Below are positions 1,548 to 56,578 of a stretch of 64,000 bases of DNA, one piece after another (the first letter of the stretch is position 1; every line of letters starts with the position of its first letter). Origin of the DNA: Marsupella aquatica (Eukaryota > Plantae > Marchantiophyta); assembly GCA_973895155.1 (NCBI GenBank), contig OZ316893.1, positions 10,545,660 to 10,609,659 on the forward strand, in the 5' to 3' direction. Position numbers and translations under genes: made by a program. A model generated the notes under the pieces. It was not told the DNA's origin. It saw only the letters and a list, made by a program, of their open reading frames with translations, and made no database searches.

Positions 1548-3650
1548 GGCAACGGCTCATGAACCAAGACGTCAATTCAGATTGGTACAAGCGGTTGAAA
1601 GTGGGCCAAACATTTGATTCAAGGGAAGGAGCTGAAGGGTTTCATTATTGACCATGGTGTGGTGTCTGAGCGGATCATTCTTAGTGTCAAGAAAGACCAG
1701 AAGCAATGTCTGGCGTCTTGTTAGATGAATCATAGCAGTGTAGAGAGTGACAAGAGATGCCACATGAGAATTAGTCATTCTGAAGAAAAAGACTGGGATC
1801 ATCACAATCACCAAAGCTCATATGAATCATGAATGTGAGGCAGTTGATCACTGACAAGCAAGATGCACACCAATTCTGACCGTTTGGCATAAAAAATCAT
1901 TGACATTCTAATGAGGAATAGGTAGACCAGGGCTTGCTCATTGCGAGATATTGCACAAGCCCTAATTCATCCTGATATCAAGTACCATATTGCCTATGTT
2001 GCTAAGAGGCAGGCTCTAGAGACATGATTGGATGGCAAAGAGAAAGACCCTTTTTTTTAATTCCAGATCACTTGCATCACATTTTACATAGGGATCCTCT
2101 TGCCACAGCAAAGTATTATGCTCCTAATGGACAATTTGACTGTTTGTTTGCCCTAGTGTTGCAAGAGAGTCATATAAGCATTGCAGACCACTAGTGGCTT
2201 TTGATGGCACCCATACTAGATCAGCATACCCACAGATTTTGCTCATTGCTACTGCACTCGGTGCTAATAACACCATTTTCATGCCAGCATATTGTATGGT
2301 TCCAAGTGAGAATCCCACTAAATAGCAGCGATTTTGAGGCTAATTAGAGATGCCATTCCGGATTTAGCAAGGCCTACAACTGTGTTTATCTCGACAGAGA
2401 GAAAGGGTTGTTGGATGGTGTACAAGAGGTCTTCCCCAGGGGCTTTCATGCATTCTGCTCATGGCACATTGGAGACAATTGCAGGTACATGAATGTTTTT
2501 ACAAACTTTGGGAGTACTACTGAGGTTTTCAAATGTCTTGCTTCTAATGTGAGCCTGACATACAGGGCACATTTCAACAAGCAAGCTCAAAAGGACTTTG
2601 AGCCGTTGGTGTATGCCACCACTCCAGAGCAATTCAAACGGAGGCTGGCTCAAATTAAAGCAAAGAATGCCAAGCTTGCAGAGTACATTGAAAAAACAGC
2701 AGACCCAAAGCATTACTCCAGAGCTTACTGCCCGTTTCAAAGGTGTGTGAATGTATTGAATATTAATCATATCACAAACATTGTCTGCTTTTTTCGCAAA
2801 TATCTTTTGAATGTCATGTGTTCTTGACTTTGGCAGGTGGGGACATGAGACAAGCCAACAAGCCAAAAGCTTGAACAAGGCTTTGAAGCCTCAAAGAATG
2901 ACAGTAGCCTTTAAGCAGTCCAACTGTTGTGGGACTACATGTTGAGAAGAGGCAATTGGTTGAATCTGTCACAACTCCATTCCCTCCAAACATTATGGTA
3001 GTGCTGAGGAGAACCAAGGAGAAGGCTGTTCAGTTACTTGCTCATGTGTCATCAAACATTGAGGTTTGTATCACCTGATTACTTGGCCGGGGAGGCAGTT
3101 CCTGGTGGAGTTTGAACCGGAATGGAGATGTAGTTGTGGTCATTGGCAAGACATTCAAATTCCTTGTGTTCATGCTTGGAGAGCTTGCACCAAGCTGCAC
3201 AAGAGGCAATTTGATTATGTTTCTCCGTTTTACTCAACTGAAGCATATAAGTAGACATACTCAGGCAGCATCCCAGCCATTTTGTGTGATGGCCTATTGC
3301 CAAACATGGATTGTGGAGAGCCACTTTTCAGAAGGAAGAGGGTAGACCATCAAAGAAGGCAAGAATGAGGTTTGTAGAGGAAGATGGAGTCCGTAGACCC
3401 ATGAGGTGTGGCCCAGGGGGTGGCCACTGCAATGAAGTTGGCCATGATCGGAGGAAGTGCCCTTAGCATCATGCACAAGTCTCACAAGAGAAAGGGAGAG
3501 GACCCACAGTAGGCAGTGAAGATGAAGATGAAATCATAACTGCTGAGGAGATTTTAGCTGCTCATGAAGAGGCAGGGCCAATCAAAATTGAGGCTGAAGT
3601 AGAGGGTACCTTCAACATGGGCATAGAAGATTCCCCGTCAAACAGTGAAG
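1548..3650 (+). pseudogene. MuDRA/MULE transposase pseudogene (many stops and frameshifts)
   Basis: Fragments: VAFDGTH (D1, ~2195-2215), VFISTER (degenerate D2), FCSWH (CxxH), TADPKHYSRAYCPFQR|WGHETSQQA across GT-AG intron 2743-2836, SWIM finger CSCGHWQDIQIPCVHAW (3066-3254 ORF), knuckle relic GHCNEVGHDRRKC (~3420-3460). Ends are approximate. Confidence 0.9.
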
Positions 3651-4068
3651 TCAATCCAGAATTCCACACGGAAGGCAGTAGGTGTTAGGCGGGAGGGGTA
3701 CATGTCAGACAATAACGAGAATGTCTTGGTGCAGAAGTCTTGGATGTCTCATTTTCTCAGTCATATGTGGATCTCCAGGGTTCATAGGAAGGTAGCCAAG
3801 GCGGTTTTATTTCTCAATTATTGGCTAGAGTAGTAGGAGACAAGTAAGTGTGGTAGTTTGGTTCTTTCAAAATGTGACTACATGTCAACATAATTTGTAA
3901 GTTGCTCTAGAGCTTTTTGTATAATAAAGAGAAGATTGTGCAATGTTATCTGTAACATTTGAAAGATAGTGCAACATTTGAATGACAAAAAATGGTAGTC
4001 TCAATTAAAATTTGCAGTGGATGATGTGCAACTGAAAGCTCACACATTGCATTTGATTCAATATTACA

Positions 4069-4287
4069 TTAGCTGCTTACATAAATTCTCCAACCTAGTA
4101 TATATAGATCCCATTGTATTGCTAGCCACTCCTCAGTCTGTGCTCTAGTCTTAAAGGACCTATGACTATTCCCACTAAAACCAAACACTTGTTGTTTTGC
4201 ATCTTCCGAGTTGTTGTATATACCTGGTCTATGACCTGAAGCCACTGCATACTCGGGGGTCTCACTATATGGATGCCTCCCCATCAC
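4069..4287 (-). CDS. Terminal exon of MULE-A accessory gene: RNase H1 N-terminal hybrid-binding (Cauli_VI/PF01693-like) domain, probably decaying
   Basis: YAVASGHRPGIYNNSEDAKQQVFGFSGNSHRSFKTRAQTEEWL matches the YAVxxGRxPGIYxxWxECxxQVxGFxGxxxKSFxTxxEAxxW pattern. The conserved W is S here (TCG). Acceptor ttgcag lies just upstream of 4287; upstream exons probably lie in 4570-5340 but were not resolved. Confidence 0.82.
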   Translation of the reverse strand: MMGRHPYSETPEYAVASGHRPGIYNNSEDAKQQVFGFSGNSHRSFKTRAQTEEWLAIQWDLYILGWRIYVSS

Positions 4288-7200
4288 CTGCAACATTTTT
4301 AGGACTCGGACCCCCTAAAATGTAAAAAAACATTATTTTTTCAACCCCTATAAAGTTGGAATATTCCAAAAAATTGGTTATAAGGTCCCTAATGTTCTTA
4401 TAAGTCTCAAAATTTGATTTTAAAAAACCATATTGTTCTTCTCAAAAACTTCTTAAGTCTTCCCTTTGAACCAATAAAATGACCCTATACTTCGTCACAT
4501 GTGATGTGTCATTTTTGTGGAAGCGGAACCTCCGAGACTCCATAGAAACCCAATTTACAAAAGTTTTCTACATTTGAATTTTGTTGTGCACCATGAACCA
4601 GAGGATTAGTCTGTTGTAGTGGAGGCCTTTGATCCTCTTGAGGGTAAGGCAGGGTTGCACTGTCATGGGCCATCTCTACTGGTGGACGACCAACAGCAAT
4701 GAGCCGCTCAAGCAATTCATGCAAAAATTGAAATAGTTGACTAAGCAAACCCAAAAACGACCAAAACATTTTTTCGGTGCACATTCCCAATGCAGACCAC
4801 ACACATCTTATAAGTAATTGTGTGCAAATGCCCCAAATTGCATTGAACTTAGTCTCGCATACCATGCTGTAAAATTATGACCCAAAACTCGGCAGCAAAT
4901 TGTGTCTCAACCTTGCAGTTGTTCTGTCTGGTCCCAAACTTGGATTGAGCTATTAATAGCCCCAGCCCGAGCGGCAAGGAATGGAGCCCTTACTAGTTTG
5001 CAGGGTGTTTAGGATAGAGTGCTCTGTGGCAGAGTGGATGTCCCGGATTTTGGTCAGCAAAATGTGTAAACATTGGGCCTCCTCAGGGGCCTCCTTTCCT
5101 TGGGCAAAAGTGGAGGTTGAATGTTATCCTTGCAGCAGGATGATCTAGCAACAAGATAAGCGAGCTGTTGCTTGTAGGGCAGAAACGCAGCCCAACAAAG
5201 CGCCAATGCTGGGATTGGCAGGAGGTAGCAAGGTGATGTCGAGCTGGGCAGCAAGGTCATCTGGAGTCGAGGCAGCAACAACCCTGGTTTGAGTGCAATG
5301 TGCCCACATTGGGCAGAGTTTCCTCATGGAAAACAAGGGTCATTTTCTCACACGAGAAAACAGGGCCTGATGTTCGAAGGCTCCATGAGGGAGCCGGTGA
5401 TGCCTCCAAGGACTGCCCAGGGCTGGGTATTGAGGGCCAGCTGAGGTTAGCATGAGGGGAAGGGGGGTCGCTCGAGTAACACCCAAGCACATTTTGGATC
5501 ATTGGATGCCACATTGTTAACAGGGGTGGTTACCTAAACTGGACTCTGGGAAACAGTGGCTTTATAGGCAATAAACTGAAAATAGTGGCACGTTGTGATA
5601 TTTGGACTAAAAAGGCGGCACTATAGTAAAAACCTCAATTTTTTTTATCAGGAGTGACCTGCTTACAAGGTTCCTGAAGTTGTCCATCTTTTCCTTTCCC
5701 TCCACTTTCCCCAATCTAAATCCACACATGCATATTGACCTGCCTAGCCTAATACCGGTTGCAACCACAGTCAGTCTAAGTGGACCGGGGGAGAGCGTGC
5801 TTGGAGTGGAGAGCTGATGAACGAACCAGGTCGGTCCTGTGGGACAGGTTTGGCCAACAGCGCATCAGAACTGGCTCAGAGGTTAAAGTGACTACTGTTA
5901 GGGATGAAAGCTTGGTGGGCACCGGGCAGGAACATAATTAATGCCGTTCAGTATTAATGCATACACCTGTCCAACTCCATCACGCATTCATGCTGACTCT
6001 GCACCCTCCCCTTTACTATACACTGTCAGATTTCTGCCCGTAGACGAAGCTAGTGACATCCAGCAGATTATGACGGCTGATCTTCCCGGGATTAACATTT
6101 GGTCCGTTGATGTTTTCCAGGTATTCAAGTGACCATTTTGGTTCATTTATTATTGCTAAGGACCTGCGTCCCTGTTTGATCCTCAACTTCAATGCCCCCC
6201 ATAGAAAACAGGTTACTTTGTTGTCACGTAGAATAACATGCTAGGAATGTTTTCATATTGAAAATTTCAAATTTATTTTCTACTGTTAGATCTCGTCGGC
6301 TTAAGGAGATCCACCAAATTCTCCTATATGTGCCCCGTGGGAAAGTGACTAATGGGACTCAACTGTGACAAACTTTAGTCAAAAGTGGACAGATCTTAGG
6401 ATAAAGGGTAAAAGTTGGCAGAAATTTTACCCATGAAAAAAATGCTGGTTTGGGTCCCTTCACTCCAGAAGAGGTACTCTCTAGCATGTGTCCTAGCATC
6501 CTAGAGGCTTCCTTTTGTTCTGCATAAGGATGGCAAGGGGTGTGTAGGAAAGTTTTGGGGTTACACTAGGGCATCTCAAGTAGCCCTTGCCCCAATAGTT
6601 TTCTGTGCCCAGAATGCTATGGGTTGGGCCATGGGATAGTTTGTCACTAACTGATACACTCAAGGCACTCGTGTCGATCCACGCCAAATATTGGTCCACA
6701 CATTCAAATATGTTGTAGCTTTACTGAAGTTGAGTAAACCCACAGGCAGGTGCTGTGACCCATCCAAAAACCCAAACCCCATGGGTTAATTTTCCCAGCG
6801 GATGTGTGATGCTGCAATAGGGTGTCTAAAAGTTGACCTTCCCCAAATTTTTGATTAGCTGTTGTGCAAATTCCAATTCGCAACCCCACTAGAAAAGTAT
6901 TATCTAGTATTCTGGGGCTACTTTACCACCCAATCACACATTTAGCATGGGGTCCAAATTGTAACTACAAGTCTTGGGACAAGTCTGAATGCCCATTCTT
7001 TAAGTTACAATAGAGGGATAATAGAATCAGCATGAATGACTATCATTTTGACATACCAACATCCCAATCTGCTCTCCATCCGCATACATTTGGTGGGGCC
7101 CTAGAGTTGCAGTCTAGAGTCTTCACTCTAGAAACCTAGACCCCAACTCTAGTTTATGTTAGTGAATTAATAAACTTATCCGTAAACGTGGTGTTGCTTT

Positions 7201-7734: not shown

Positions 7735-8086
7735 TGTCATGGAATTACTTTTAGGTCTACTTAGGGTTACGATGGTAACCATAGTTAGGGCTGACCTTAG
7801 TCACGGACTAGGTTAGGTTTACTCGGTTCCACACTATATCGATCCCAAATGGTGTTTGCTGGGATAGTAGGAATTCAGGCTCGTTGTTACGGAGCTAGTT
7901 GAGAGATAGAGATATCTTGTATTGTGAAGACTCAGTATGGCTGATGGGCCTAGAGTGTAATAAAGCTCTTATGTGTTCCCGTGGATGTAGTCTTAACTGA
8001 GGTGAACAACGTTAGCTCTATGTGTCGACTACTTGTGCGTTGGATGATCATGGACTTGCCATTGTAAATGTTGTCTTTGCTCAACA
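7735..8086 (+). mobile_element. Solo LTR A (Ty1/copia-like)
   Basis: TG...CA ends, 352 bp, near-TSD AGTAC/AGTAT. Contains AATAAA followed by TTCCCGTGGATGTAG...GGTGAAC, typical of plant copia R/U5. Homologous to LTR B. Confidence 0.75.
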
Positions 8087-8214
8087 AGTATGTATGTCAC
8101 TCTCTCGATCCATAATCTCGATGTTGCTTGTGCTTGCTTGTTTGGTTTTGCTTCCCATCACTCATGAGCTACTCATTGCAAAGAAAGACGAGAAGAAAGA
8201 TTGCAGGTCTGGAG

Positions 8215-8558
8215 TGTTGAGCATAGACGACATTCGTGACGGCAAGCCCATGAACCATCCAACGCACAAGAGTCAACACAGAGAGATACGTGGTTCACCT
8301 CCACATGAGGCTACGTCCACGGGAACACACAAGAGCTTTATTGCACTCTAGGCCGACCGGCCATACCAAGCATCCACAGCACAAGCTCTCTCTATCTCTC
8401 AACTAGCTCCGTAACAATGAGCCTAAGTTCCACCAGGGTCTGGCATCAGCCCTGGTTTTATGCACAACAGCACTACCGCTAACATTAGCTAAGTCCTAAC
8501 CCGAGTTAGACTAACTGTGGTTAGCTCATGAGTCACAAGACTAGAGCAATATCTAACA
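8215..8558 (-). mobile_element. Solo LTR B (same family, opposite orientation)
   Basis: TG...CA ends, 344 bp, perfect 5-bp TSD TGGAG (8210-8214 and 8559-8563). 8215-8432 is the reverse complement of ~7870-8086. Confidence 0.85.
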
Positions 8559-9917: not shown

Positions 9918-10899
9918 TAAGATGCTGTCTGACTGTTCACATTTCAAAGGCTTGGCAGATTTAAGAATTGGCGTTTCTGGGTAGAAAGGATCGCCTTCGT
10001 GGAATTCTTATGAGCCGACTTTGGCATTCAGATTGGCTTGAATCAAATGGGCTCCTGCCGTTGAGTGCCGGTTGAGTCCCGGTGGCGATGGATTGGAGGG
10101 GAGACCAGGACGGATGAGGACTGGGTGAGAATGATGATGTCCACGGTGGATGAGACTCGAGGCGATGGAGTGTCCAGCGAAAGGGACAAGTTTTAAAGGC
10201 GAAACAGACTGCAGAGGGACCGAGTGTGGAAGTTCGGTTGGTTCACTGTTCTGTCTGTCTCTCGTGTTTCATCCGGTTGTATCTGTCCGGTTGCGTCCTG
10301 TAAATAATGGTTGCACCCCATGCACCGGCATTGATGATTATCCCTGGATGTCACCTAGCCGGTTATGAGACGGTTCTTCTCATTGCTGATTGCCCTCGCC
10401 CACATGTTGGGACGAGTTTACACAGTAGTACCCGCTTGGCACCTACCTTTCAACAATGGCCATCTCTTCTCTTGAATATCAGCGACACTTCATCGCTGCT
10501 TTTACTCCTTGTGTTGTCGTGCAACTCATCATTCCGACTCCGCTATCCCCTTTCAAGCTCCGCCAACGATGACTATTAACGGAGGTTTGTGTTTGCCCTT
10601 GCAGATTTGCGGGTTGGTGTGTCTGTTCACTAGTCAGCTTGTTTGTGTCTGTATTGCAGGCTTTCGCAGCTTGGAAAGACTGTAAGAAAAACTATTTTGG
10701 TGGAATTTTGGTAGTCCCTGGTTGTGGTTAGAATGATTGTTGAGGCCAATTGGGGTGGGGGGGAGAGAGTTTCCGTTCATTCAAGGATTTTTGTTTTGTG
10801 GGGCGTCTTATGTTTGGACGATAGCGAGGTTGCCGGTAGATTTGTGGATTCTCGAGATCCATTCTCAGCCGATTTCTACTAGCACCTATGTTGTGATCG

Positions 10900-12360
10900 A
10901 TGGATCTGGATATTGATGATGGGGTCACGGATCGTGCAGCGGGGGACGAGGAGTCACGCGCGCATCTTCTATCCATCCCGTCAGATTTGAGCTCCAAGGG
11001 GAGTAGGGCCAAGGTCAGCATAGAGGGCCTGGACAGATATGCAGATGAGGGAACCCGTATTCTCTTCAGTGTTTCCTTCGATATTAAGCCTGGGGAAGTG
11101 ATGGCCATCATCGGCCCAAGTGGCAGCGGCAAGTCCACCATTTTGCGAGCCATCAATCGTCTCTGGGAGCCTCCGGCTGGAACAATTTTCGTGGACGGGC
11201 AGGACATCACGAAAAATGATGTGCTAGCTGTGCGGAGAAAATGTGGAATGCTCTTCCAGACACCCCTACTCTTCGAAGGTGACTGGCTTTCTCGCGCTTA
11301 GGCTTCTGATTTTCAACCTGGCAGTCTTTCTGAATAGTCTTCATACCTAGCTGAGTATGCTATTAACTCTTGCTTCGGATGGACAAATCTCATTGAAGAT
11401 CTCAATCTCCCTACACAATAAAATCTAACATTTTCTTCTTTCATCGTTGAGGGTGACTTCACGGATGCTCTTGGTTCTCTCCTCGAGCTCTTGGGACCAA
11501 TATGTACTCAAGGAAACTACTGTAAATATTGATTAACATGCTACTGATGTGGATGCGGCAGGCACGGTAGCTGACAATATAAGGTATGGCCCTAGCCTGG
11601 AGGGTAAGACCCTCACCATGGAAGAGATCGAGGGCCTCTTGATGCTGGCGGACTTGGAGCCAACCTTTGCTACCAAATCAATTATTGGTTTAAGTGTTGG
11701 CCAAGCTCAGCGGGTTGCTCTAGCGCGGACTCTTGCAAATAACCCAGAGGTAATTTCATATCTTCCTGTCGTTCCAAGCTAAGGAGATGCAGTAGGATGT
11801 AAAGAGGAAACACGCATGGGCTGTTCGTACTTCGACTTGCACAAAGTGACAGTAACACAGAGTGAATGATCACGGAACTTCTTACGTCCTGATGGGATCC
11901 ACCGGATGCGATCAAATGTTTCTACCTGGGCGAGATTTAGCTTGATGCCATCTTTACAAGGAGGTGAATTGCAAACGTGTTGTCAGTGGGTTCTAATGTC
12001 TCAAAGTGGAAATTAATTTACACCAGATGGTACTGTCCGATATTGGAATTGGGAGCCGTTTCTGGGCTGCTGACATTGATTTACCCATCTGTTGTGCAGA
12101 TTCTCTTGTTGGACGAACCGACCAGCGCTCTGGATCCCGTTTCTACAAGACACATTGAAGAGACAGTGACAAAGCTGTCACGCACTCGAGGGCTGACTGT
12201 AATCATCGTATCTCACAGTCTAGACCAGGTTCGTCGCATCGCGGATACGGTATGCCTGGTAGCTGCCGGACAGGTTTTAGAAGTATTGAAACCAGGTGAT
12301 CTCGACCACGCACAGCACCCCGTTGTGAGGGAATTCATTGCTGCATCATCCCAAGCTTGA
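10900..12360 (+). CDS. STAR1: Stand-alone ABC ATPase, STAR1/ABCI17 (NAP3)-like; 3 exons, 275 aa
   Basis: Exons 10900-11278, 11562-11749 and 12100-12360 with GT-AG introns; 828 nt in frame. Walker A GPSGSGKST, LNRLWEPP-type motif (INRLWEPP), signature LSVGQAQRVALARTLAN, Walker B LLLDEPTSALDP, H-loop VSH. These match the plant STAR1/ABCI17 family from memory. Confidence 0.92.
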
Positions 12361-42525: not shown

Positions 42526-44811
42526 TTACTGCCATGCCGAAACACCCATGAGAGGCATGCCGTGCCATCCAAGAGCAAGGTACCCACATTCACTAGGAGA
42601 CAGTGTGTACCCGCTCGAGTAATAGAGATTGAGCAACAGCTGGGCCTGACTGCCTGCCCGGTTGCTCAAAGGCACGTTGCCGAAGTGGGCGGATTGCATC
42701 TTTTTGTGCCAATATTTCATGGTCTCGTGCCCATCCACCCTGGCCGGACCTTCGCAACCAATTATATTTCTAATTTTCTGAGCAGCGAAAATCTCTTCCA
42801 TCTTCATCCTCGAAGGTGAGTCAGGAGGCAGAGAGGCATCGAAGGCGTCGAACACCGCTGAATAGTACCTTAAGCACTCGACAAAACGAGTGAGGAAAGA
42901 ATTACTGTTATGATTTCCGTCATTCTCCGCAAACGCCAGCACCTTCGGATTGAGCAGCCGCAGATCACCTAGAAGCCTGTCAATAGCGTTGGGGGATTTA
43001 TTGAGAATCCGGTGAAATTGAACAAAGCTATTCACCACAAGCACCTCGCCGCGCCGCGTTTCCACCATGCTAGCTTCGAAATCCTCCAAGTCACAAAGGA
43101 TTGGACAGAACTCGAACGGGACTCGCAGGTTCCTCGCACACTCGTGCAACTTCTCACCGGTTTCCTTCAAATCGGTCGCGTCAGACCCTATTGCTGATAA
43201 CCGAAGCTTTGGGACTTCTCCACCTCGCAACGCAAGAGCCTGGAGGAAGGCAGGCCATTGCATACCATGGAATATGCTAAGTTCAAGCACATGAATGCTA
43301 TTATCCTTCTCCACCGCATCGAGAAGAATCTGGTTGCAGGTGAGATGGCCGAACTTCCCGATAGGGATACAATCGTAATACACGCTGAAAGCCTCTAAGG
43401 TCTCGGCCTGTGGTAAAGTTTTGTCCCCATCCAGACCCAGAAATCTAGGTAATCCACTCTCCTTCTTCAACCGCGCAGTGAGAGCCTGCTCGAAGTAGGC
43501 AGCCAGGCGCTGCATCGGGTTTCCGTCGGCGAGGACATGATCCCTGAGACGCACCAATATCACTTCAGCTTCGCGCAACTTGTTCTCTGCGACTGCTTCC
43601 GCGCAGGCCAGAAGGTAATGCACAAGTTGTAAACCTGTAGCGGGGACAGAGGTTCCGGTGCTCATCTGCTCGGAGAGTTGACTCGTATGGGCAGGGAATC
43701 GCGAGTTCTGTAGCTGTAGGAGAGAAAGGGGAGCTGCTGGGCTACTGCTGGGACCAAACCCGGTGGTTTGGGGTGAGCAACGAAAGTTCTGCTCTGAAGG
43801 AATGATATTGAATCCTCCTCCGAGGCTCGGAGGACTCATCCTCACCGGCTTGTGCTGGGGCTTCTTCAAGGCCAGTTGCTGCTGTTGCTGCTGCTTCATG
43901 GCCCTCTGCTGGTGCTGCTGCGAAGAGGAAGGGCTCCCGACTTTCAAGTTCCCATTGATTCCTAGCTTACTCGTTGGAGACACGCCATGTCCTCGCCCTA
44001 CATCCACATAAAAGTTGTTGCTCATCACTGACTCGGAAGGGCTGGTAAAACCCATTGTCGCGTTATCCGAGCCCGTATCCATGGAAGAGGCTTCATACAT
44101 CATGTCGTGAAAGTCCCTAATCAAGACGGGAGGGTGGTTGGAACGGATACCCTCATCCATCATAAGGTTCCTCGTGTGCTGATGGGACACAACTGGGCCA
44201 GCCTCTAGCCCAGTGAGACCCACGGATCCATGACTGCCATAAACGGAATGCTGCGGTGCACTTGCCTGTGAGACAAGATCATTGAACAGGAAAGGGTCCA
44301 AATCCAAATCTTGGTGGTGCTGCGAAGGCAAGTCGAAGTTCTTCAACAAACCGTCAATCTTCAGCATGCCGTCAATCTCTTCCAATGCTCCCCCACCATT
44401 CCCGCCATGCAGCTGCTGCTGTTGTTGCTGGACAGGAGGCTGATTGCTGTAACGGTGGGACACTTCATGATGAGGCATATAGGAACTGCTCACTCCCCCA
44501 CTGACATGATATGTGCCTTGGGAGCTTACCAGTGTTGGAGGAGGGCCGTAATAATCGAACTCTGCAGAACTTACCAGAGGCTCCACCTTCGGGGTGTGGT
44601 AATTGTCACCCAAATCGAAAGGGTTTTGGGAGGCGTGATTGGGAAAGAAATACTGCGGGTAAGGATCTGACGTCATGTAAGAAGACGAGCAGATCTCACT
44701 GCTAGGATCCATAGTTCTCGGCCCATTAGTCCACTCCATCAGATGAGGTGAAACACTGTTGTGCTGGTTCGAGAAATACATGTTCGGGTCCGGCTCCCCC
44801 ACAACAGCCAT
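42526..44811 (-). CDS. GRAS family transcription factor, intronless CDS, 761 aa
   Basis: The ORF track start (44853) is GTG shortly after an in-frame TAG; the first ATG is 44811. Low-complexity poly-Q N-terminus. LHRI GLQLVHYLLACAEAV...PMQRLAAYF, VHIID-type KFGHLTCNQILLDA...IHVLE...GMQWPAFLQALA, PFYRE FLTRFVECLRYYSAVFD, terminal SAW. Subfamily unresolved, with some NSP2-like features. Confidence 0.95.
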   Translation of the reverse strand: MAVVGEPDPNMYFSNQHNSVSPHLMEWTNGPRTMDPSSEICSSSYMTSDPYPQYFFPNHASQNPFDLGDNYHTPKVEPLVSSAEFDYYGPPPTLVSSQGTYHVSGGVSSSYMPHHEVSHRYSNQPPVQQQQQQLHGGNGGGALEEIDGMLKIDGLLKNFDLPSQHHQDLDLDPFLFNDLVSQASAPQHSVYGSHGSVGLTGLEAGPVVSHQHTRNLMMDEGIRSNHPPVLIRDFHDMMYEASSMDTGSDNATMGFTSPSESVMSNNFYVDVGRGHGVSPTSKLGINGNLKVGSPSSSQQHQQRAMKQQQQQQLALKKPQHKPVRMSPPSLGGGFNIIPSEQNFRCSPQTTGFGPSSSPAAPLSLLQLQNSRFPAHTSQLSEQMSTGTSVPATGLQLVHYLLACAEAVAENKLREAEVILVRLRDHVLADGNPMQRLAAYFEQALTARLKKESGLPRFLGLDGDKTLPQAETLEAFSVYYDCIPIGKFGHLTCNQILLDAVEKDNSIHVLELSIFHGMQWPAFLQALALRGGEVPKLRLSAIGSDATDLKETGEKLHECARNLRVPFEFCPILCDLEDFEASMVETRRGEVLVVNSFVQFHRILNKSPNAIDRLLGDLRLLNPKVLAFAENDGNHNSNSFLTRFVECLRYYSAVFDAFDASLPPDSPSRMKMEEIFAAQKIRNIIGCEGPARVDGHETMKYWHKKMQSAHFGNVPLSNRAGSQAQLLLNLYYSSGYTLSPSECGYLALGWHGMPLMGVSAWQ
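43544..43564 (-). promoter_or_regulatory. miR171-like target site in the GRAS mRNA
   Basis: mRNA AGUGAUAUUGGUGCGUCUCAG (encodes VILVRL) compared with miR171-family UUGAGCCGCGCCAAUAUCACU: G:U at positions 1 and 10, mismatch at position 6. Same LHRI position as the HAM/NSP2 miR171 sites. Confidence 0.65.
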
Positions 44812-46129
44812 TGAAGGGTCACTGCCGTCCTCGGTATGCCTGATATGCGCCACGAGGGCCTAACCTGAATATCCCTTCTTTAAGGTGGCGAACCTGGGTA
44901 CTTGAACCTCACTCTTTGGTACTTAAATCGCTTTACTTTCAACTCCCGCAGGCAACCCCGATCGCTGCACACCTTGAACAAAACCTTCCCCAGCCTGGTC
45001 AATCGATATCACTCCCCCGTCTGAGCATGAAAGCCTCGTTGTCCTCCCCCAAGAACGGTGGGAGACTGACCACTGGCAGCTGTGCCTGGAACCGCGCTAC
45101 GTAGATGAGAATTTCCGAGAGGAAAATGGAGAACCTCTACCAGGCACAAGACTGAGAGGAGGGATGGTTCCTGGCGAGATTAAGCCAAGTGAAACTAACA
45201 ACAATGATACACAATGCTTTCAACGGACAAGCGGATACGAAGGTAGACAGCAAGAGCCCGGAGAGTGTTGCAATAGTGAGATGAAGGCAGGACGACAAAC
45301 AGAACAAGCAATCAAGAGTGATAACAAACTATGTACTGGGAGCACAGACGTACGATAAACGAGGCGAAAGTGGAAAGAAAGGTACGTCAAGCAAGTGGAA
45401 GCTGTGCTTGCTAAGGGCACTGTGAGAACATGTCTGCCTGCCTAAGGGATCCGGACAACGACAAAGATGTCCACAACCTTCAGATTTCGTTTCGTTAGCG
45501 CACTGGTTGCCAAAAAATTAGATTGGCATTATATTGCCCTCGTACTAGTGGCACTGATGAAACTTCCGAGTCCGTACCTCAACATAGCCTTCCGTGAGTT
45601 CCGTCAATGAAAGCCCACTCCGTGCTAAGGCACACCGCAGGCCATTCGGAGGTTGGTGAGCTCCAATGGAAACTGTAGAGTAGTACTACCACTACCGCGA
45701 CGCCTCAACTACATCACCTATCACTCCGTCCAACCTATCAGGGTAATCCCCGCTCCAACAAAGAGATACACCGCTCTCTTCCCCTACTGCACATGTATCT
45801 TCTCACATCTCCGCTCCATCCCTCGCATTAGACTCCGGCACTGGCAACACGACAAGCTACACATCTACCAATCTACCAGATCTCGTCCACACTTCCAACT
45901 CGAGTGCTTTTATCTCCAACCCACAAATCTTATGCCAGCTCTCGACTCCCGTAGCTTATTAGTTCCTCCTGCAACCCCTCAGTTCTTGCAGAAGCCGCAA
46001 TTAGTTCCGGCAGCAGCACCAGACGCCCCACCCTCTGCAGGCCCTGCAGCAGTATTAGCAGTGAGTAGTACTTCTATGAGTTGTGCGTGTCAGTCAGTCG
46101 TCTCTACCATCGCACAGATTTGATGCCCA

Positions 46130-48349: not shown

Positions 48350-50990
48350 CATTATATCATCTAACAAGAGGACAAGTGAAATGCAATAGAGAAACACCCC
48401 AAGCCACATAGTGATAAGGAGGAGTGCCACCGTGTCTAGTGTATATAATCTCATTATCTCTAATTCCCAGTTCCATTAGCCTGCCACTATATAATCATTG
48501 ACAATACATCCCACCTACACAGAATGCTGAGTTTTTGTCATGAGAATTAGATTTCTGATTTGCTTCACGAGGGTTTGTTCCATTTTTGTAACCCATTTCA
48601 AATGTGGAGTAAGCCTCTTTAATTTTTTTGTGATTTTAAATTACAAACCTTAGATTGTAGTATGTAGATTGTTACCTAGTTGATAACATAGTGACCTCTG
48701 ACTCAAACATTAAAATTACCACAATTTAAGATATATCCCAGCCACTGAACTTGAGATCTTCCATTCTAGAACGCAAGAGTGTTGACCATCGGGCTAGCCT
48801 ATTAGTGTGTAAATAGTGGTCTAATTGCTCATTATAATGAGATGTTTTTCCTTCGATTCCAACCCAGAGTGCACACCATTGTTCTAAGAGAACACGACTG
48901 TGACACGCTAACAACTTTCTCAGAACTAATACCCGTATAGCATACATTTTATATTCTTCAATCATTATTAGTAATTATAATTCTCATGGGCACCGTTCAC
49001 AGCAATAGGCCTTGCCTCTTGTCACTTTTCTTATTTAAATTGTCCTAATGATATCAAAGAGTGCAATCTCTTTAATATATACCACAGTGCCAGAACGAAA
49101 AAAACGAGGAACTGGGAGACAGGGTCCCCATTGCAAAGCAGCCCAATAAAGGGGGGAAGTAACAGGAAAAGGCCCCACTCTTTAAGAGTTTTTCTTATCA
49201 CTCTTAACTAGAATTTATTTTTGAATTCACTACACCAAATAGATATCGCTTTACTTTGCTAGAGGATAAAATAATTGCGTCAAGCATGTTCAAGGATGGG
49301 CCAACTATACTATATCTAACTTTGGCACTTGCCCCCATTTCAAACCCATGGTAGGGTTGCAATCAAACATAAGAAAGCACAACCAAATTGTTGGCAACAT
49401 CTATTTGTCCGGCTCATAGTCCCACTCCATTGACCTTGTTGCCTCCTTTGTGGCTTCCAGGTAACAAGCACCTATTGTGCATTAGTGCTTTAGCGATAGT
49501 TGTTAGCTAGCCCTTGTACTGCAGTGGACCTACTATGACTCCCCAATTTTAACAATCATCCTATTGCTTCTTCTTTTTTGCCCTTTCACCACATTATGCG
49601 GACAGGACAGGGCAGGGTGGTAGTCTGGTAGGGGTTGAGCAAGGCCCTTTGTATCTGTGCCTTGTGTTGTGTAGGTTTTCAAATCTGCCTCGCCAGCCTA
49701 AATCTTGCCATGGCTAGCATAGTCTCCTCCTCTCTTGAATGCCCTTATGTATAGTATACTACCCGGTGCCAGTTCATTGCACATTGTTGTTCAGAGTAAT
49801 TGATGTTGAGCTCAAGTGTTCTCAGGGATAGTGGGATCTGCCGTTAGTCAGACTCTGCCATGATTCAGCAAGTAGTCTAGGAACTGGATTTCAAGGAGTG
49901 TTGCACACATCTCAATCACCCTAGAAATGGATCTTTTGTATGTGTCTCTCTTGGTTTTTTCCTTTCCTCTATACATGACTGTTTGCACACTTCCCCGCCA
50001 CAGAATGGAGTTATCCATGCTGTATTTAGACACAGTGAATATTATTATCTTTTGTGTTACTATAACTACACATCAAAATATGACTTATACAACATATGAC
50101 ATGACATCAATCCATAACCTGATAAACTTCATTGTTATTGTTATTTTTTAACAGCTTTTTATCAACCTGTCCCCTTAACTTGCCGAAATTCGTAAGCTGT
50201 CCCCCAAACGATTTTATTTACTTTCCTGCCCCCCATTTTGTATACGAACTGGTATGTTAGAAGTATGGTGCTCCGGATGCCAGGTGGCAAGGCGTCATTG
50301 GCCCGGATGATTCTGGCTTGTACTCCTTCCCCCCTCCCTGCCGGGGCCCATTTTCCTGATGCAAGGACCCGGGAGGAGGCCAAACAGCCCCGCCACGAAC
50401 CTCCGCTCCCCCCCTAATTTTCCGCTGCCCCTGCCCTCACAAGCCCCAACGTCCGTGGAGCCTGAGCCTGAGCTTACCCCTCGCGAACCCTGAGTGCTCG
50501 CGAACCCCCGGCCCCGTTTTTACAAAGGAAAAAATGCAGGGAATGTTGACACATTTGCCTCCCAACTTTTGGCAGCTCGCTCTCGACCTTTGATCAGCTG
50601 CAATGTTTGGCAGGCTTGCTATCTTGGTGCGCCCCTAGGGTTTAGACACAAAGTCACTGCGAAGTCGTAAGTGTTTGCAATCGTTTGCTCTCTCTTTCAA
50701 CCCTGCAATCCTGCGGTTTGTTGATTGATGTTCCCGGTTGATGTTTTTTTTTCAATGCTGGTAGCTGTTCGGCCTGCGTCTTAGTTTCCTGTAGCGCACC
50801 TGATCAAATGCTGGCCGAGGGTGACAATTAAGCCGTTGCTAGGTGGAGCACTATCAGTAGCACTTTCTTTCGACACGTTTCTGGATTCTATATTTTGGAA
50901 AGCTTCCAGGGAGAGACGTTGTGGCCATGGCAAAGTGGGGCATTGTTTTCAACACATTTGCAATATGCATTTGGCTAGCTGTTAGATTGC

Positions 50991-51527
50991 TTGCCTCAAT
51001 TTTTTCGTTTCATCTCAAACTTGTTGGACAGTGCCACAGATTATCTGCATGCTTGTGTGAATCGTTATGAGCACATACATACATTACCCAATCCTACACC
51101 TTCTGCACCTGAAATGCCTCCAGATTTCATGAGTGAGCACGGGAAAGGACCTGTGGATATTTGTGACAGGATGAAGGTCGAGGTTGGAGCCCCTGAAGCA
51201 GTACCTTTGGCAATAGTAGCAGCAGCTGTTTGTGGCAAAGTAGGAGAACCAAGGACAGTTTCAGCTGGGATGGGCACTGGTTTGCCGGTGGAGTATGTGA
51301 ATGGTCCAAAAACAGTGTGGAAAGCAGGGCAAAAGAGAAAATTCTACGCTGTTGTTCGTGGATTTCAGCCAGGAATTTATGAGACATGGGATGAATGTAA
51401 TCAGCAAGTCTGGGGATTTAGTGATTGTAAATTCAAATCGTTTAAGACTAGGGCAGAGGCTGTAGAGTACATGCACAATGGATTGAGGGCACGAGGTACA
51501 TGGGGAATGCCCCATACTGCAGCATAA
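50991..51527 (+). CDS. MULE-B accessory gene: C-terminal RNase H1 N-terminal hybrid-binding (Cauli_VI-like) domain, no catalytic RNase H domain
   Basis: Domain at 51339-51470: KFYAVVRGFQPGIYETWDECNQQVWGFSDCKFKSFKTRAEAVEY. Stop at 51527, AATAAA at 51604. The ORF opens at TTG and the first ATG is 51114; the 5' exon structure is unresolved (donor GTAAGT at ~50667). Confidence 0.88.
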   Translation: MPQFFRFISNLLDSATDYLHACVNRYEHIHTLPNPTPSAPEMPPDFMSEHGKGPVDICDRMKVEVGAPEAVPLAIVAAAVCGKVGEPRTVSAGMGTGLPVEYVNGPKTVWKAGQKRKFYAVVRGFQPGIYETWDECNQQVWGFSDCKFKSFKTRAEAVEYMHNGLRARGTWGMPHTAA

Positions 51528-51842
51528 GTAGATTGACCAATACTTCACTTTCCCAGTATCATTCAGGCAACTTTGACCTTTCATGCACATTGAGTTTCCA
51601 TGCAATAAAAATACCAATTTGCACAAACAATTTGCACAAACAATCATGAGTCTGTGAGACTGTTTGAACAATACTGTGTAACATGGCCTCATTTCATTCC
51701 ACATATCTCTTATTGGAATTTATGAAATTTATTGCAAATAGTTTACAAAAAAGCCTGTATACAGGTGCTAGACTATTACAAAAAGTGGTGGTGTGCTCTT
51801 CCAAGCTCACACATTCTGTGAACAAAATTGGCCTACAGGTTT

Positions 51843-53825
51843 CATCTCTGTGATTCTACTGTCTCAAGCAATTGAGAGAAGGTCCCAATGTCCAAGCTTT
51901 CCTGACTACTATCAGTGTTGTTCATGTCCATGTTGTCTTGGCTCTTCTCAGCATTTTGTCGAAGGGCTTCTCTTGCTGCTGATCATTCTGGGCAGCTCCT
52001 CTTGTCATGGCCTCGTTCAGCACACACACCACACTTCCTGGGCAATCTACACACTTCCTCACCTTGAAATTGCATCCTTAGTCGCTCTGTGGGACGTCCT
52101 TTCCTACGCTTCTTCAACGGTGGTCCACAATGGGGGTCTGGCAGCAATTCGGTCCTCAATAATGCGGGGAGATGAGCCATATATGTCGCCCGGAATGTGT
52201 CAGTTGTCTACAATGGGGAAACATAATCATAATGCCTTAAACACAATCTGGTCAAGGCCCGCCATGCATGCACACAAGGTAACAAAGTGTCCTGGAAATC
52301 GCCACAACTGCAAAACCACTCAGGTTCAAACTGCACAAGATACTGATTGTTTTTATCATCAGTTATCCGAACCTCAATTGCATTGGAAGGGTGGGCAGTC
52401 AGGTGAGTGGCTGCCTCTTCAATGTCCCTCAAATATGTCATAATGTTTGGTGGGAATGGAGTTGTGACACTGGTAGCCAATTCCCGCTTTTCAAAATATT
52501 TGACCATGATATAATCCCAAATCTGAGAAGACATATTCAATGTTACCTCCTGTCGTTGGGGTTTGAAAGCACGATTACTGCTTTCAGCTTGCTGTGAAGT
52601 TTCATGGCCCCACCTGGCACAAACCATTGTTCAATGCTCACAATTTCAGATCACAAAAACATCCAGCATCTCTGAGCAACAAAACATGGTCTAGAAACAA
52701 AACAATTATAGCAATTGAAAATGACTTGCCTTCGACCAGGGAAGAATGCTCTTGAATAATATTTAGGATCTGCTGTTCTCTGAATGTACTGAGCAGCAGC
52801 AGGGTTTTTAGCCTCGATCTTCTCCAATCTAAGACTGAACTTTGTTGGAGTCATTGCATAAGGCAAGGACTCAAACAACTTCCTGATTTCTTTTCCGTAG
52901 TGTTTATGCACATTCTTTGCTAGGTGCCATGTGCAATATGCAGGATATGCATGAGGAAAAATTCGTGGCACCCCATCAGTCAACCCCTTCTCCCTGTCTG
53001 AAATAAACACAGTGCCTATCTTGCTCAAGTCGGGAATGGAATCTCGTAACAAATTCAGGAAAAACATCCAGTTCTCTTCATTTTCTGATGGCACCCAACT
53101 GTAAGCAAGAATAATCACAGTGTTGTTGGCATCGAGTGTGGTGGCCAAAAGTAAAACTCCAGGATACATACACCGTGTATGGGTGCCATCCAAGGCCACC
53201 ATGGGCCTGCAATGACGATATGCTTCCTTGGAAGCCGAAGGGCAAACAAACAACATATCCAATTGACCACCAGGAGCCCTGTACTTAGCAAATGCCCCTG
53301 GGTCACGTTCAAGGATATGGTGGCAATGGGCAGGGATGAACTTGAATGACTCTGTCTGGTCTCCATCTAATCGTTTTAAACACCTTTGCTTTGCAACATA
53401 TGCAGTGTGGTATTTTATATCTGGATGGACTAATGCTTGGGCTGAGTCCCTCAAGAATGAGGGTCTGGTTTGGCGATTCTTACCGATAATATCCATTATG
53501 CGGTCAGCAAGCCTGTCTGAATTGGAATGCATCCTGCGGTGGTAGTGATCTGCAGCTTCACATGAGTGGTGCAAGTTGGCTACTGTTATGGTTATAGTTT
53601 CGGTTCTAGACTTCTTTGTTGCCCTCAGCCACCAGGGGCACTGCCTTTCATTGGTGTCCTCATTCATTCGACATCTTACCTTCCACTTTGTATGGTCCTT
53701 CTTTTGGGTGACAAGAACTCTCTCAGTTTTTACTCCCTCATCCACAATGACTTTCTTCAAGTCCTCCCAGTTCTCAAATGTTGTCCCGACTTGCAACTTG
53801 ATAGGTGTTTGTGGATCCATAATAC
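51843..53825 (-). pseudogene. MuDRA-type transposase with one or two nonsense codons
   Basis: Exon 53825-52730: MuDR N-domain CPWWLRA...HHSC, VALDGTH, FISDREKG, YCTWH. GC-AG intron 52729-52614. Exon from 52613: QAESSN (catalytic E), SWIM CSCGDFQDTLLPCVHA, in-frame TAG at 52208-52210, knuckle CGVCAERGHDKRSC, TGA at 51983, then an open acidic tail to ~51843. Upstream donor at 54052. Confidence 0.93.
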
Positions 53826-54429
53826 CTACAAACATAGAAACATAGAAATTGAAATTTTAGCGTAACTGTTTCACAGCAGGTTCACATGTTCCAGGCAGGG
53901 ATTGAAATGAACATAGACAGTGCCAAAGCTCAGAATAGTTCAAGCAGAATTGAGTCTACCTTGTCACGCTAATGACACTGTCCAAGGGATCAGATTGCTA
54001 GTGCTGTGGACATCCTAGCTTGGATTCAGTCAATTTGTTCCAAGAATGATACCTTCAATGTTTAGGCTGTTGCTGTCGTGTGTTCCATGGCAGCGGCAGC
54101 GCCCTCCAACTGCCCCCTAGCCAGCAGCCGATCATGAATTCCTGGTGTTGTCAAGGCAGCAAAGTCGAGTGAAGTTGAATGCAGCTTAACCAGGCTGAAG
54201 TCTGGAACCAAAATTTGCCCAATGTTGTTTTCTTTGAAAGAACAGGGCAAGAAAATGCAGGGAAGACGATGACACAGATTCCCGCACTCATTCAAAAACT
54301 TTGTTGTGGCTCTGTGCATAAACCCTATGGGCGAAGGTTGCAGCAGCGTTCTATCGAGAGCAAGCATATCACACTGCCAAAACCGTGGAGGCGAATGTGT
54401 GAACAATCGCGACATTTTTCCTTACTAAA

Positions 54430-54690
54430 AATGGGGCTTAGGGGAGCGGAGGTCGGGGGTTTGCGAGGGCTCAGGAGCAGCCGAGGTTGAGGGTTTGCAA
54501 GGGCTCAAGGGCAGCGGAGGCCGGGGGTTCGCTCAGGCTCAGGCTCGATGGAGGTTGAGCCTGGCGAAGGCAGGGGCAGCAGAGGTCCAGGGTTCGGCTC
54601 AGAACGCAAAGGCTGGGGGTTCGCTCAGGCTCAGGTCCGCTGAGGTTGGCGCTTGCGAGGGCAGGGGCAGCGGAGTTCAGGGGCAGTGGA
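54430..54690. repeat. GC-rich subterminal repeat expansion inside the right TIR of MULE-B
   Basis: Reiterated GGGGGTTCGCTCAGGCTCAGG and GGGGCAGC(G)GAGG motifs. The left end (50430-50540) has a shorter inverted counterpart. Confidence 0.7.
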
Positions 54691-56578
54691 AAATTAGGGG
54701 GGGAGCGGAGGTTCATGGCAGGGCCGTTTGGCCTCCTCCTGGGTCCTTGCATCAGGAAAACGGGCCCGACAGGGAGGGGGGAAGGAGTACAAGCCAGAAT
54801 CATCCGGGCCAATGACACCTTGCCACCTGGCATCCAGAGCACCATACTTCTAACATACCAGTTCGTATAGTGAATGGGGGGCAGGAAAGTAAATAAAATA
54901 GTTTGGGGGACAGCTTACGAATTTAGGCAAGTTAGGGGGACAGGTTGATAAAAAGCTGTATTTTTTAAATCAACATATGACATGACATCAATCCATAACC
55001 TGATAAACTTCATTGTTATTGTTATTTTTTAAATCAGTGAATGCACACCATAATACTATATTTTGATGGCACACCATAATACCACATTTTGATGTGTGAT
55101 TACAGGCATTATGAGTCTCTCTCCCTCTTTTTTACTTTCCTCGATACACATCCATCCTGCAGTAAAACATGACTGTACTATGTTTTTGTGCCACTCTCTG
55201 TCTCCTGTTTGTTCTTGCCTCCATACACGTTACATCCCACTAAGACATGGACTGTACTATCTTTTGTGTCTCTCTCTTCCTTTTGTGTTTTCCTTCATAC
55301 ACGTTCATCCCCCGCACATCTCGATCACGGTTGCAGTTATCCTCGCTGCAGTTAGACACGGTGTACTAGCCTGTACAACCTTATGTTTCTCTCTCTATGC
55401 TATCCTCCACACAAGTCCATTTGCACATCTCGGCCGCATGATTATTGCAGTACCTTACCATTTTTGGGGCGCAGTGCAACGCGCGGCATGTGAGCACCGG
55501 AGGGACGTATACGGGCCTGTACTACTGTACAGCCATGCCCATCTCCCACAAGCGCATGCATGCATGCACAACCTTCGGTTTCCCCGATGCAGTGGATGTA
55601 TGTATGTCACTTGACAGACCGTACGAGAACACAGGTCATGGTCTGCGCGGGTTTTCCGATCCTTCTTTCGTCCGTACGGGACAAGTTACGATATCCATCC
55701 ATATATCCACCGCGACATAAAATTACTCGCTAATAAAAGTCGCCATTGTACTCTAGTCAGTGAAACACAAGTTGGTCGCAAACGAGAACGTCATCCTACG
55801 GCCACGACAGACAGCTGACCTTGATTACAGCGATAGTCTTGTCGCAACTCAAACCGTTGTAAATTTACCATATCCCTTCTTAACAATTAACCATCGTAAA
55901 GAATGGTTTACACCCCAAGTGGAAGTTGTGAAGGACACAGTCGATAGTTTAGATTGAAGTGTAGGTTTTGATGGACACAGTAAATGGTTATTATTAGGGT
56001 GTGTTGACTCTTTTGAGTTTTATGTGACCGGAATAGTATGGACTGGGTAAGGGGGCTAAAATCTGCACTTCTGGATGATTGCTACTGCCACTAACTTGGG
56101 GGGTAAGTCACCCGCTGTCGGGACTTAAACATTGGTGCGCCTCAATGCACCAGCACCCTTCAATAACATCACCGAAATAAAAATTGATGATGTTAGGTGT
56201 TGTGACTTGTCTCGAACCAAAAACTCCTGGGACAAAGTTTTCTAGAGTCTGGATTTCTGTCAGGATCATGTACTGACACGTCTCATAGCAGATATTTGAT
56301 GAAACATCAGGTTAGAGATGCCCTATTGAAGTGATAGTTCTGATTGACATGCACATTTGATGCAAAATTCTGATAACACTATTGAAATGTTGAAATTGAC
56401 TCTTAGCACATATTTTCTAAGAATATTAGCAAATGAGGAAAATATTTGCTAAGAATATTACATGTTGTAAGAACAAAATGCATTTGATTGGGAATATAAT
56501 ATTTTCCACATTTGACCTGTCCATACAGTCACCTCTTCTCTCATTCAACTGGAGGAGTTGGGGCTATTGGTTCCCTTA

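Follow-up and report, generated by a model that had tools for sequence, protein, structure and literature searches.

Results

In this work we have analysed a 64-kb window of Marsupella aquatica DNA (the whole stretch under study), in which a MULE, here called MULE-B, spans positions 50152-54958 (4,807 bp). It lies between two perfectly matching 10-bp TSDs, TATTTTTTAA, at 50142-50151 and 54959-54968. The arms of its TIRs match over 203 nt at 94% and extend to about 330-346 nt at 89%; the left TIR (50152-50480) is C-rich on the plus strand, with a degenerate inverted similarity that runs on to about 50665, and the right TIR lies at 54616-54958. The preliminary description of this DNA had claimed a 4.8-kb MULE with TIRs and a 10-bp TSD, and these ends bear it out. 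The AT-rich TSD lies within a small multi-copy repeat, and other copies of the element are flanked by A/T-rich DNA. A Met-initiated reading within the degenerate inner extension of the TIR was rejected by eye, as the differences between the arms are mostly non-synonymous.

The transposase gene is on the minus strand and runs inward from the right TIR. Its main exon (52730-53825) encodes PF03108 and the DDE core PF10551, and is followed by a predicted GC-AG intron of 116 nt (52614-52729), at the matching place of which the second element of the window, MULE-A, has a GT donor. The last exon (51842-52613) carries the catalytic Glu motif, the SWIM domain, a zinc knuckle and an acidic tail, together with two premature stops. 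In Pfam, PF10551 (50.6 bits), PF03108 (29.1) and SWIM (27.6) all score over the cut-off and the zinc knuckle scores under it. MULE-B thus combines a PF10551/PF03108-type DDE transposase with SWIM, long TIRs and a TSD in the range of 8-11 bp, and the latter two are part of the MULE definition as given in PMC6446971. An autonomous MULE would have an uninterrupted transposase; that of the window copy is interrupted by stop codons in frame, at 52208-52210 and 51983-51985, where other contigs have sense codons.

The second gene runs inward from the left TIR on the plus strand. The sole Pfam family of the ORF at 50979-51527 is PF01693, which aligns along its full profile to aa 121-164 (68.7 bits, E 5e-19). 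This RNase H1 hybrid-binding domain (HBD), at 51339-51470, also matches the human (3BSU) and yeast (1QHK) structures with E about 5e-8, and 18 residues separate it from the ORF stop (51525-51527). Human RNase H1 contacts nucleic acid through Y29, R33, W43, F58, K59 and K60; the first five have equivalents in the HBD of MULE-B, and in place of K60 it carries Ser, a residue found there in 88 of 137 comparison HBDs. Pfam detected no RNase H catalytic domain (PF00075 or PF13456) in the scanned ORFs. The gene therefore has the hybrid-binding domain of an RNase H1 and lacks the catalytic domain that an RNase H1 carries in the same protein. The claim of an HBD without a nuclease, for which a PF01693 match had been proposed as the check, was confirmed in this way; the term stand-alone holds as regards the nuclease and has to be given up otherwise, because 18 residues follow the HBD and a probable hydrophobic helical N-terminus precedes it.

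Upstream of the HBD, inspection of splice consensus sequences suggests a 5' leader at 50579-50908 (acceptor at ~50578, donor GTAAGT at ~50667 and acceptor at 50908), and one diverged contig does not resemble the window from 50586 to 50906. The predicted start is the ATG at 50927, which opens a hydrophobic N-terminal helix (50927-51005; maximum Kyte-Doolittle 19-mer 1.94). It is followed at 51006-51338 by an amphipathic helix with a hydrophobic moment of up to 0.8 and a Pro-rich, acidic linker, a segment in which Pfam found no family. In the single-sequence model, which is poor from 51114 on (mean pLDDT 41), the linker has pLDDT < 50. The product is thus likely a protein of ~199 aa in which hydrophobic and amphipathic helices at the N-terminus, which may serve in self-association or in attachment to a membrane, are joined by a flexible linker to a C-terminal HBD. 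In the window copy, the T-run at 51000-51005 has one T too many, and the N-terminus and the HBD are therefore in different frames. A near-identical contig over 50927-51005 shows no substitution and one base deleted relative to the window, and only the phase that lacks the extra T brings the N-terminus of a diverged contig into frame. Other contigs read through all three breaks of MULE-B, the second-gene frameshift and the two transposase stops, and the window copy is a defective one in which both genes are broken.

The convergent stop codons are separated by a spacer of 314 nt (51528-51841) with AATAAA at 51604 (+) and 51733 (-), and in diverged copies unlike sequence takes its place. In maize MuDR, mudrA and mudrB are convergent. 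The same geometry had been claimed for MULE-B, with the transposase running inward from one TIR and the second gene from the other, and the positions of the ORFs and splice sites agree with it.

MULE-A (865-5636) belongs to a different family and is older and decayed, with TIRs of 278 nt at 91% and a 9-bp TSD with one mismatch. Its transposase, on the plus strand, is 57% identical to that of MULE-B (278/490), and the TIRs of the two elements are unrelated. On the minus strand and convergent with the transposase lies a second gene, whose HBD (4126-4251) matches PF01693 with 50.6 bits (E 2e-13) and is 44% identical to that of MULE-B (49% over 43 aa by tblastn). At a position where 136 of the 137 comparison HBDs carry Trp it has Ser (codon TCG), which is ambiguous because MULE-A is decayed. 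In a tree of 139 HBDs the two are not sisters, although with 44-48 residues this tree has low power. The N-terminal part of the gene (4512-4865) would form two helices followed by a Pro/Gln-rich linker; its N-terminal helix, with a hydropathy of 1.35 and charged residues within, is less hydrophobic than that of MULE-B, and the N-terminal similarity between the two is weak (p 0.017, local shuffle). Foldseek returned no PDB match for the model of the MULE-A N-terminus, and a POPDC match to this part was disregarded (E 0.26). AATAAA-like signals at 3923 (+) and 3811 (-) would make the MULE-A transcripts overlap. Both elements show a mirror-image GC skew at their ends. In MULE-B the TIR and sub-TIR region at 54400-54800 is G-rich on the plus strand (skew 0.34) with two G4-like runs, the right end ranks at the window's 98th percentile, and the left TIR has a CpG observed/expected of 0.6 versus 0.31-0.35 inside the element.

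We then compared copies of the second gene among contigs, using the best-supported 40 of 147 rows, in which some HBD-covering contigs could stem from outside MULEs. Over the HBD, 17 of the 20 listed variants are synonymous and 3 non-synonymous; over the whole ORF the ratio is 24:5 (29 variants), against an expected synonymous share of 0.19-0.26 (p < 1e-7), which corresponds to a pN/pS of 0.04-0.07. The same variants give 4:25 and 3:26 in the other two plus frames and 16:13 in one antisense frame. Across copies, purifying selection thus acts strongly on the codons of the HBD, and the transposase variants (22:9) do not differ from those of the HBD (Fisher p 0.32). A long antisense ORF at 51261-51719 was rejected as a selected gene (6:23). 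In four of six contig joints, from runs of organisms A and B, a spacer of unlike sequence connects the HBD side with the transposase tail, with at least 37 nt on either side; in run X5 (organism C) the HBD and the transposase are covered by different contigs, with no bridge among the listed pieces. In every run contig depth is highest over the HBD, and depth cannot rank the parts of the gene.

Our literature searches, with Repbase outside their scope, found no description of an HBD second gene in a MULE. In protein searches 21 of 25 candidates matched the second gene, with alignments over the HBD only and no clade-specific relative among them, and none of the best 120 of 194 longer matches contained a MULE domain. 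Among grasses, Coix shows an over-representation of IPR011320. A bacterial-like stand-in query for the window protein retrieved HBD-only clusters. No related locus came from 13 pattern matches in genome contigs or from 50 in viral contigs. The one metagenome locus (L001) obtained from 219 pattern matches was spurious, with a 10-residue match and no tblastx match to the window.

Discussion

Is the second gene of MULE-B a part of the element or something that it carries along? A Pack-MULE would have no transposase and would carry a host fragment that drifts without selection, whereas here a transposase is present and pN/pS is about 0.05. Because diverged copies keep the HBD linked to the transposase and 17 of the 20 HBD variants are synonymous, the second gene is very probably a selected accessory gene of the MULE lineage and not Pack-MULE cargo. 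The preliminary description had already favoured a transposon-encoded accessory gene over a recent capture, and selection, linkage and the same layout in MULE-A all speak for that view. The idea of a captured fragment of host RNase H1, a passenger without function for the element, would accord with the frameshifts of the second gene in the window copy and in contigs of organism A, and with HBDs of MULE-A and MULE-B that are only 44% identical and do not group in the low-power tree. However, besides the low pN/pS, the HBD is kept while the adjoining spacer has been replaced, and two families whose transposases are 57% identical place and orient the gene alike. We therefore regard this idea as largely refuted and highly improbable.

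What could such a protein do for the transposon? Because two distinct families carry a nuclease-free HBD gene that faces the transposase and diverged copies conserve this module, the second gene probably represents a novel type of helper, whose ligand would be RNA:DNA hybrids of the element itself. Our preferred reading, to which we give a probability of roughly 0.4, is that the conserved accessory protein binds hybrids on the element's DNA without cutting them and helps to keep the element active. Read-through or outward transcripts over the GC-skewed TIR ends would form R-loops, and the protein would coat these in competition with host RNase H1. The stabilised hybrids might then hold the TIR promoters in an open or unmethylated state, and the outcome would be an anti-silencing role like that of VANC, reached by a different route. 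The full-length PF01693 and PDB matches, the contact residues present in MULE-B, the selection on the HBD, its linkage to the transposase, the layout of MULE-A, the GC-skewed ends, the G4-like runs of MULE-B, the higher CpG ratio of its left TIR and the binding of RNA-DNA hybrids in vitro by the motif of CaMV P6 (PMC5902531) are consistent with this proposal. Several observations weigh against it. Both inward-running transcripts would be C-rich over the TIRs, which disfavours R-loops, and the proposal therefore needs read-through or outward RNA. The N-terminal 19-residue hydropathy of 1.94 is in the transmembrane range, and the protein may reside at a membrane instead of on chromatin. The HBD of MULE-A has Ser for Trp, and the P6 motif doubles, in the account of PMC5902531, as a protein-binding surface. 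The variant tally draws on 40 of 147 rows, with some contigs perhaps from outside MULEs, and one antisense frame gave 16:13. Lastly, the GC skew and CpG retention of the TIRs may simply reflect transposase-binding sites.

The next-best explanation, although an unlikely one, is a cofactor of insertion or targeting analogous to MURB, whose helices would bind the transposase and whose HBD would tether the transpososome to R-loops or aid gap repair at the new site. It would fit the shared mudrA/mudrB geometry, as well as the two modules joined by a flexible linker and the selection on the HBD, which is as strong as on the transposase; mudrB is described as apparently required for integration (PMC6446971). 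Yet the TSD is AT-rich and other copies have A/T-rich flanks, not GC-skewed R-loop DNA, and TED and Jittery are described as being without mudrB homologues (PMC9569675). Could the protein instead be an adaptor, with its N-terminal helix in the ER or nuclear envelope and an HBD fold that recruits host proteins or tethers the element's nucleic acid there? A hydrophobic and then an amphipathic helix occur in both families, ANKLE2 is described as having both a transmembrane and a Cauli-VI domain (bioRxiv 10.1101/611384), and the P6 dsR domain is reported to bind TOR, eL18 and eL13 (PMC5902531). This seems to us distinctly less probable, since the MULE-A helix is less hydrophobic and contains charged residues, the N-terminal similarity of the two families is weak, and MULE-B retains the nucleic-acid-contact residues.

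HBDs prefer RNA:DNA hybrids over dsRNA, and this already counts against a silencing suppressor that would sequester the dsRNA of overlapping convergent transcripts or of TIR fold-back transcripts and hide it from Dicers. The AATAAA signals of MULE-B also predict non-overlapping mRNAs, although 314 nt lie between the stops of its convergent genes and the transcripts of MULE-A would overlap. Anti-silencing genes such as VANC do exist in other MULEs, and the P6 motif binds dsRNA in vitro (PMC5902531). The preliminary description had argued for a suppressor from the example of CaMV P6; this argument fails because the matching dsR domain is reported, in the same source, to be unnecessary for suppressing RNAi. 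We consider this reading slightly less probable still than the membrane adaptor.

MULE-B resembles maize MuDR in its long TIRs, its 8-11 bp class of TSD and two genes that, judged here by ORF and splice-site position, converge inward from the TIRs; it differs in that its second gene is an HBD protein, which MURB, compared by description only, is not said to be in the accounts that we consulted. VANC of VANDAL/Hiun is also a MULE-encoded accessory protein with the anti-silencing role that we propose here. However, Pfam scans showed no sequence similarity to it, MULE-A and MULE-B have long TIRs, and the proposed ligand is an RNA:DNA hybrid. The HBD is like that at the N-terminus of RNase H1 (3BSU, 1QHK) in its full-length PF01693 match and, in MULE-B, its retained contact residues; unlike in RNase H1, it is C-terminal, and the element contains no catalytic domain. 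With the dsR motif of CaMV P6/TAV it shares the same Pfam motif of 40-44 aa, and no similarity was detected outside it. A PF01693 gene within a DNA transposon has been described in a Pleurotus helitron (capE), as a gene captured in a single long copy (PMC4289320), but that case is fungal and belongs to another superfamily, and we found no case in a MULE. Perhaps the handle of RNase H1 became, in an old plant MULE clade, a shield of R-loops that lacks the nuclease and oligomerises or is held at a membrane through its N-terminal helices, and unrelated DNA transposons, helitrons included, recruited the module independently, so that R-loop capture would be a general anti-silencing strategy; we hold this wider scenario to be rather doubtful.

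Of all the parts of a MULE, the second gene (mudrB, VANC, PMD) is understood least, and descriptions of mudrB still give its function as unknown. Here the slot is filled by a domain with well-known biochemistry, and the role of a MULE helper gene therefore becomes directly testable with point mutants. Such a helper would also connect R-loops with the way in which a cut-and-paste transposon is controlled or targeted. The closest known filler of the slot is the antisense gene for a plant mobile domain (PMD) in angiosperm MULEs: Table 1 of Dupeyron et al. 2019 gives groups 42 and 45-50 a conserved, often antisense second gene with this domain. These elements share with ours a SWIM/CCHC transposase and such a second gene, but in MULE-A and MULE-B the slot holds PF01693, and Pfam found no PMD in either. 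The transposase is only 23-35% identical to the named angiosperm relatives that we found. The comparison with antisense PMD genes goes beyond the preliminary description, as do the N-terminal helical segment, the second gene of MULE-A and the breaks in MULE-B.

Results

MULE-B (50152-54958) is 4,807 bp long and lies between identical 10-bp TSDs, and its TIR arms are complementary at 94% over 203 nt and at 89% over about 346 nt, which bears out the preliminary description of a MULE with TIRs and a 10-bp TSD. The transposase is on the minus strand; PF03108, PF10551 and SWIM score above the Pfam cut-off and a zinc knuckle scores below it. Splice sites predict a main exon at 53825-52730 (-), a GC-AG intron at 52614-52729 (-) and a last exon at 52613-51842 (-). 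The donor of this intron is GC, compared with GT at the matching place in MULE-A, an older MULE of a different family. The transposase of the window copy has stops at 52208-52210 and 51983-51985, and at these sites contigs of other copies read Tyr and Arg codons. The window copy is therefore broken but the family is not.

The second gene runs on the plus strand, convergently with the transposase. Its ORF, 50979-51527, hits the PF01693 profile of Pfam from end to end (68.7 bits) and no other family, the RNase H1 hybrid-binding domain (HBD) lying at 51339-51470 (+), and it also matches human and yeast HBD structures (E about 5e-8). The Pfam search thus upholds the HBD proposed from the sequence, and so does the ORF the proposed lack of an RNase H catalytic domain: it ends 18 codons past the HBD, so that no nuclease domain follows. 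Residues equivalent to human Y29, R33, W43, F58 and K59, which we take to have a role in hybrid binding, are retained. Upstream, an ATG at 50927, shortly 3' of a predicted splice acceptor, starts a predicted hydrophobic helix, and a single extra T in the T-run at 51000-51005 puts this reading out of frame with the HBD in the window copy. Among contigs from the sequencing runs of three source organisms (A, B and C), one from organism B is free of substitutions over 50957-51404 and lacks a single base there. In a diverged contig, which shows 59 differences over 451 nt, the net deficit is 16 bases; this keeps the frame only in the phase that is one T shorter, a check with a one-in-three probability of being passed by luck. 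The intact product is likely a protein of 199 aa, predicted to comprise, from N to C, a hydrophobic helix (Kyte-Doolittle 1.94), an amphipathic helix (hydrophobic moment up to 0.8), an acidic Pro-rich linker and the basic HBD. A long contig of organism A retains the extra T, which suggests that the youngest copies there may give no more than a shorter protein. In organism C, a low-depth contig of 217 nt is identical to 50969-51185, in a run whose other copies are diverged; it might stem from contamination, from a hybrid origin or from recent transfer.

Contigs of four runs were aligned to 51290-51990 at 80% likeness. The tool selected 40 of 147 variant rows for listing; we counted the 29 in the ORF and left out the 11 in the spacer and transposase tail. 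Synonymous changes make up 24 of these 29, and 17 of the 20 inside the HBD, against an expected share of 0.19-0.26 (p < 1e-7; pN/pS 0.04-0.07); all variant tallies here are of listed differences, not phylogenetic events. Read in the other plus frames, the same 29 variants give synonymous to non-synonymous counts of 4:25 and 3:26, and in the minus frames 5:24, 16:13 and 6:23. For the transposase, 33 rows among the 40 listed of 1,340 give 22:9 and two stops, which does not differ from the HBD tally. The HBD side is connected with the transposase tail across an unlike spacer in four of six joints, which come from organisms A and B; one 790-nt contig, for example, aligns with 51398-51514 and with 51873-51979 (86-88%), the two matches being separated by 319 nt of other sequence. 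Organism C has contigs covering the HBD, and those listed contain no bridge to the transposase. Selection and linkage combined lead us to reject a neutral passenger, and the earlier view of a transposon accessory gene rather than captured cargo holds.

A PF01693 domain is also found in MULE-A (865-5636), at 4251-4126 (50.6 bits) and again convergent with the transposase. MULE-A is decayed, with a TIR of 278 nt at 91% and a TSD identical at 8 of 9 positions; its transposase pieces share 278 of 490 residues (57%) with those of MULE-B, and comparison of the two TIRs revealed no common sequence beyond chance words. The ORF upstream of its HBD has two predicted helices (residues 2-26 and 31-59, pLDDT 67-82) and aligns weakly with the MULE-B N-terminus (score 48; p 0.0004 by global and 0.017 by local shuffle; BLASTP E 0.012). 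Identity between the two HBDs is 44%; each is nearer to some unrelated HBDs, and a tree of 139 HBD sequences did not join them. From position and layout, a single ancient acquisition would be the simpler reading. The MULE-A HBD has Ser at a nearly invariant Trp position. Between its N-terminal ORF and HBD exon lies an AT-rich, weakly self-complementary stretch (4300-4510), which may be an intron or small insertion absent from MULE-B.

Besides the TSD, MULE-B has on either side a copy of a perfect 62-nt direct repeat (50090-50151 and 54971-55032), which places the element within the first unit of a tandem duplication of 64 nt; other tandem duplications of 60-95 nt occur at 9495, 19203, 25770 and 56943. 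The insertion site is a small repeat that has short inverted ends and is present in multiple copies (50060-55108), and in many contigs about 50089 is joined to about 55076 with no MULE-B between. The window also contains ABC transporter exons (10897-12357, +) and an intronless GRAS-family ORF of 777 codons (42529-44859, -; 366 bits), from which a land-plant origin of the DNA can be read. A 219-nt inverted-repeat pair at 82% (7870-8431) is probably a MITE.

Discussion

The second gene is real, a selected accessory gene common to at least two MULE families, and its proposed mechanism is directly testable. The closest transposases found are unnamed fragments of 47-59% identity. The literature we searched, with most subscription journals beyond its reach, yielded no description of a MULE with an HBD gene, or of an HBD in MULE helper genes. 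In the portions available, Dupeyron et al. (2019; PMC6446971) name mudrB, mutB, vanB/vanC, PMD, FAR1, SET and OTU as further content of MULEs, and 'RNase H' and 'Cauli' do not occur in that text and three of its supplementary files. The closest structural parallel, as far as the accessible sources go, is the antisense PMD gene of angiosperm MULEs.

What might such a protein do? An HBD without a nuclease would be unable to remove hybrids, and could hold, shield or tether them. On the plus strand of both MULE-A and MULE-B the left ends are C-rich and the right ends G-rich, with G4-like runs in MULE-B, and because of this an outward transcript through a TIR would be rich in G and prone to form R-loops, whereas the inward mRNAs would not. 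We therefore favour, at a probability of roughly 0.4, a protein that would shield the element's own R-loops so that the TIR promoters stay active, each functional step being an inference.

According to Pooggin and Ryabova (2018; PMC5902531), both hybrids and dsRNA are bound in vitro by the dsR motif of CaMV P6; TOR, eL18 and eL13 are further binding partners, and RNAi suppression does not require the motif. The main analogy of the preliminary description, to P6 as a silencing suppressor, falls for this last reason. Sequestration of dsRNA, for which the in vitro binding would speak, is improbable. Scarcely better placed is a membrane-anchored or protein-binding adaptor, with which the hydrophobic helix would be compatible; an HBD module occurs together with a transmembrane domain in ANKLE2, according to the portion seen (bioRxiv 10.1101/611384). 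Selection on the HBD as strong as on the transposase would also suit a MURB-like insertion cofactor, which we consider unlikely, if less so than the adaptor; TED and Jittery are described as lacking mudrB (PMC9569675). A passenger, given the variant tallies and the linkage, is hardly credible. The R-loop shield remains our preferred reading.

Sources available in part also report one Pleurotus helitron copy with a PF01693 gene (PMC4289320), over-representation of IPR011320 in Coix (PMC7247446) and an HBD module in RNase LS toxins (PMC3710099). Among the matches listed are unnamed proteins that fuse the HBD to a PIF1-like helicase, a G-patch being present as well in four of the five, and an RNase H of Calypogeia fissa that has two HBDs (together P0090, P0101, P0115, P0120, P0139 and P0082).
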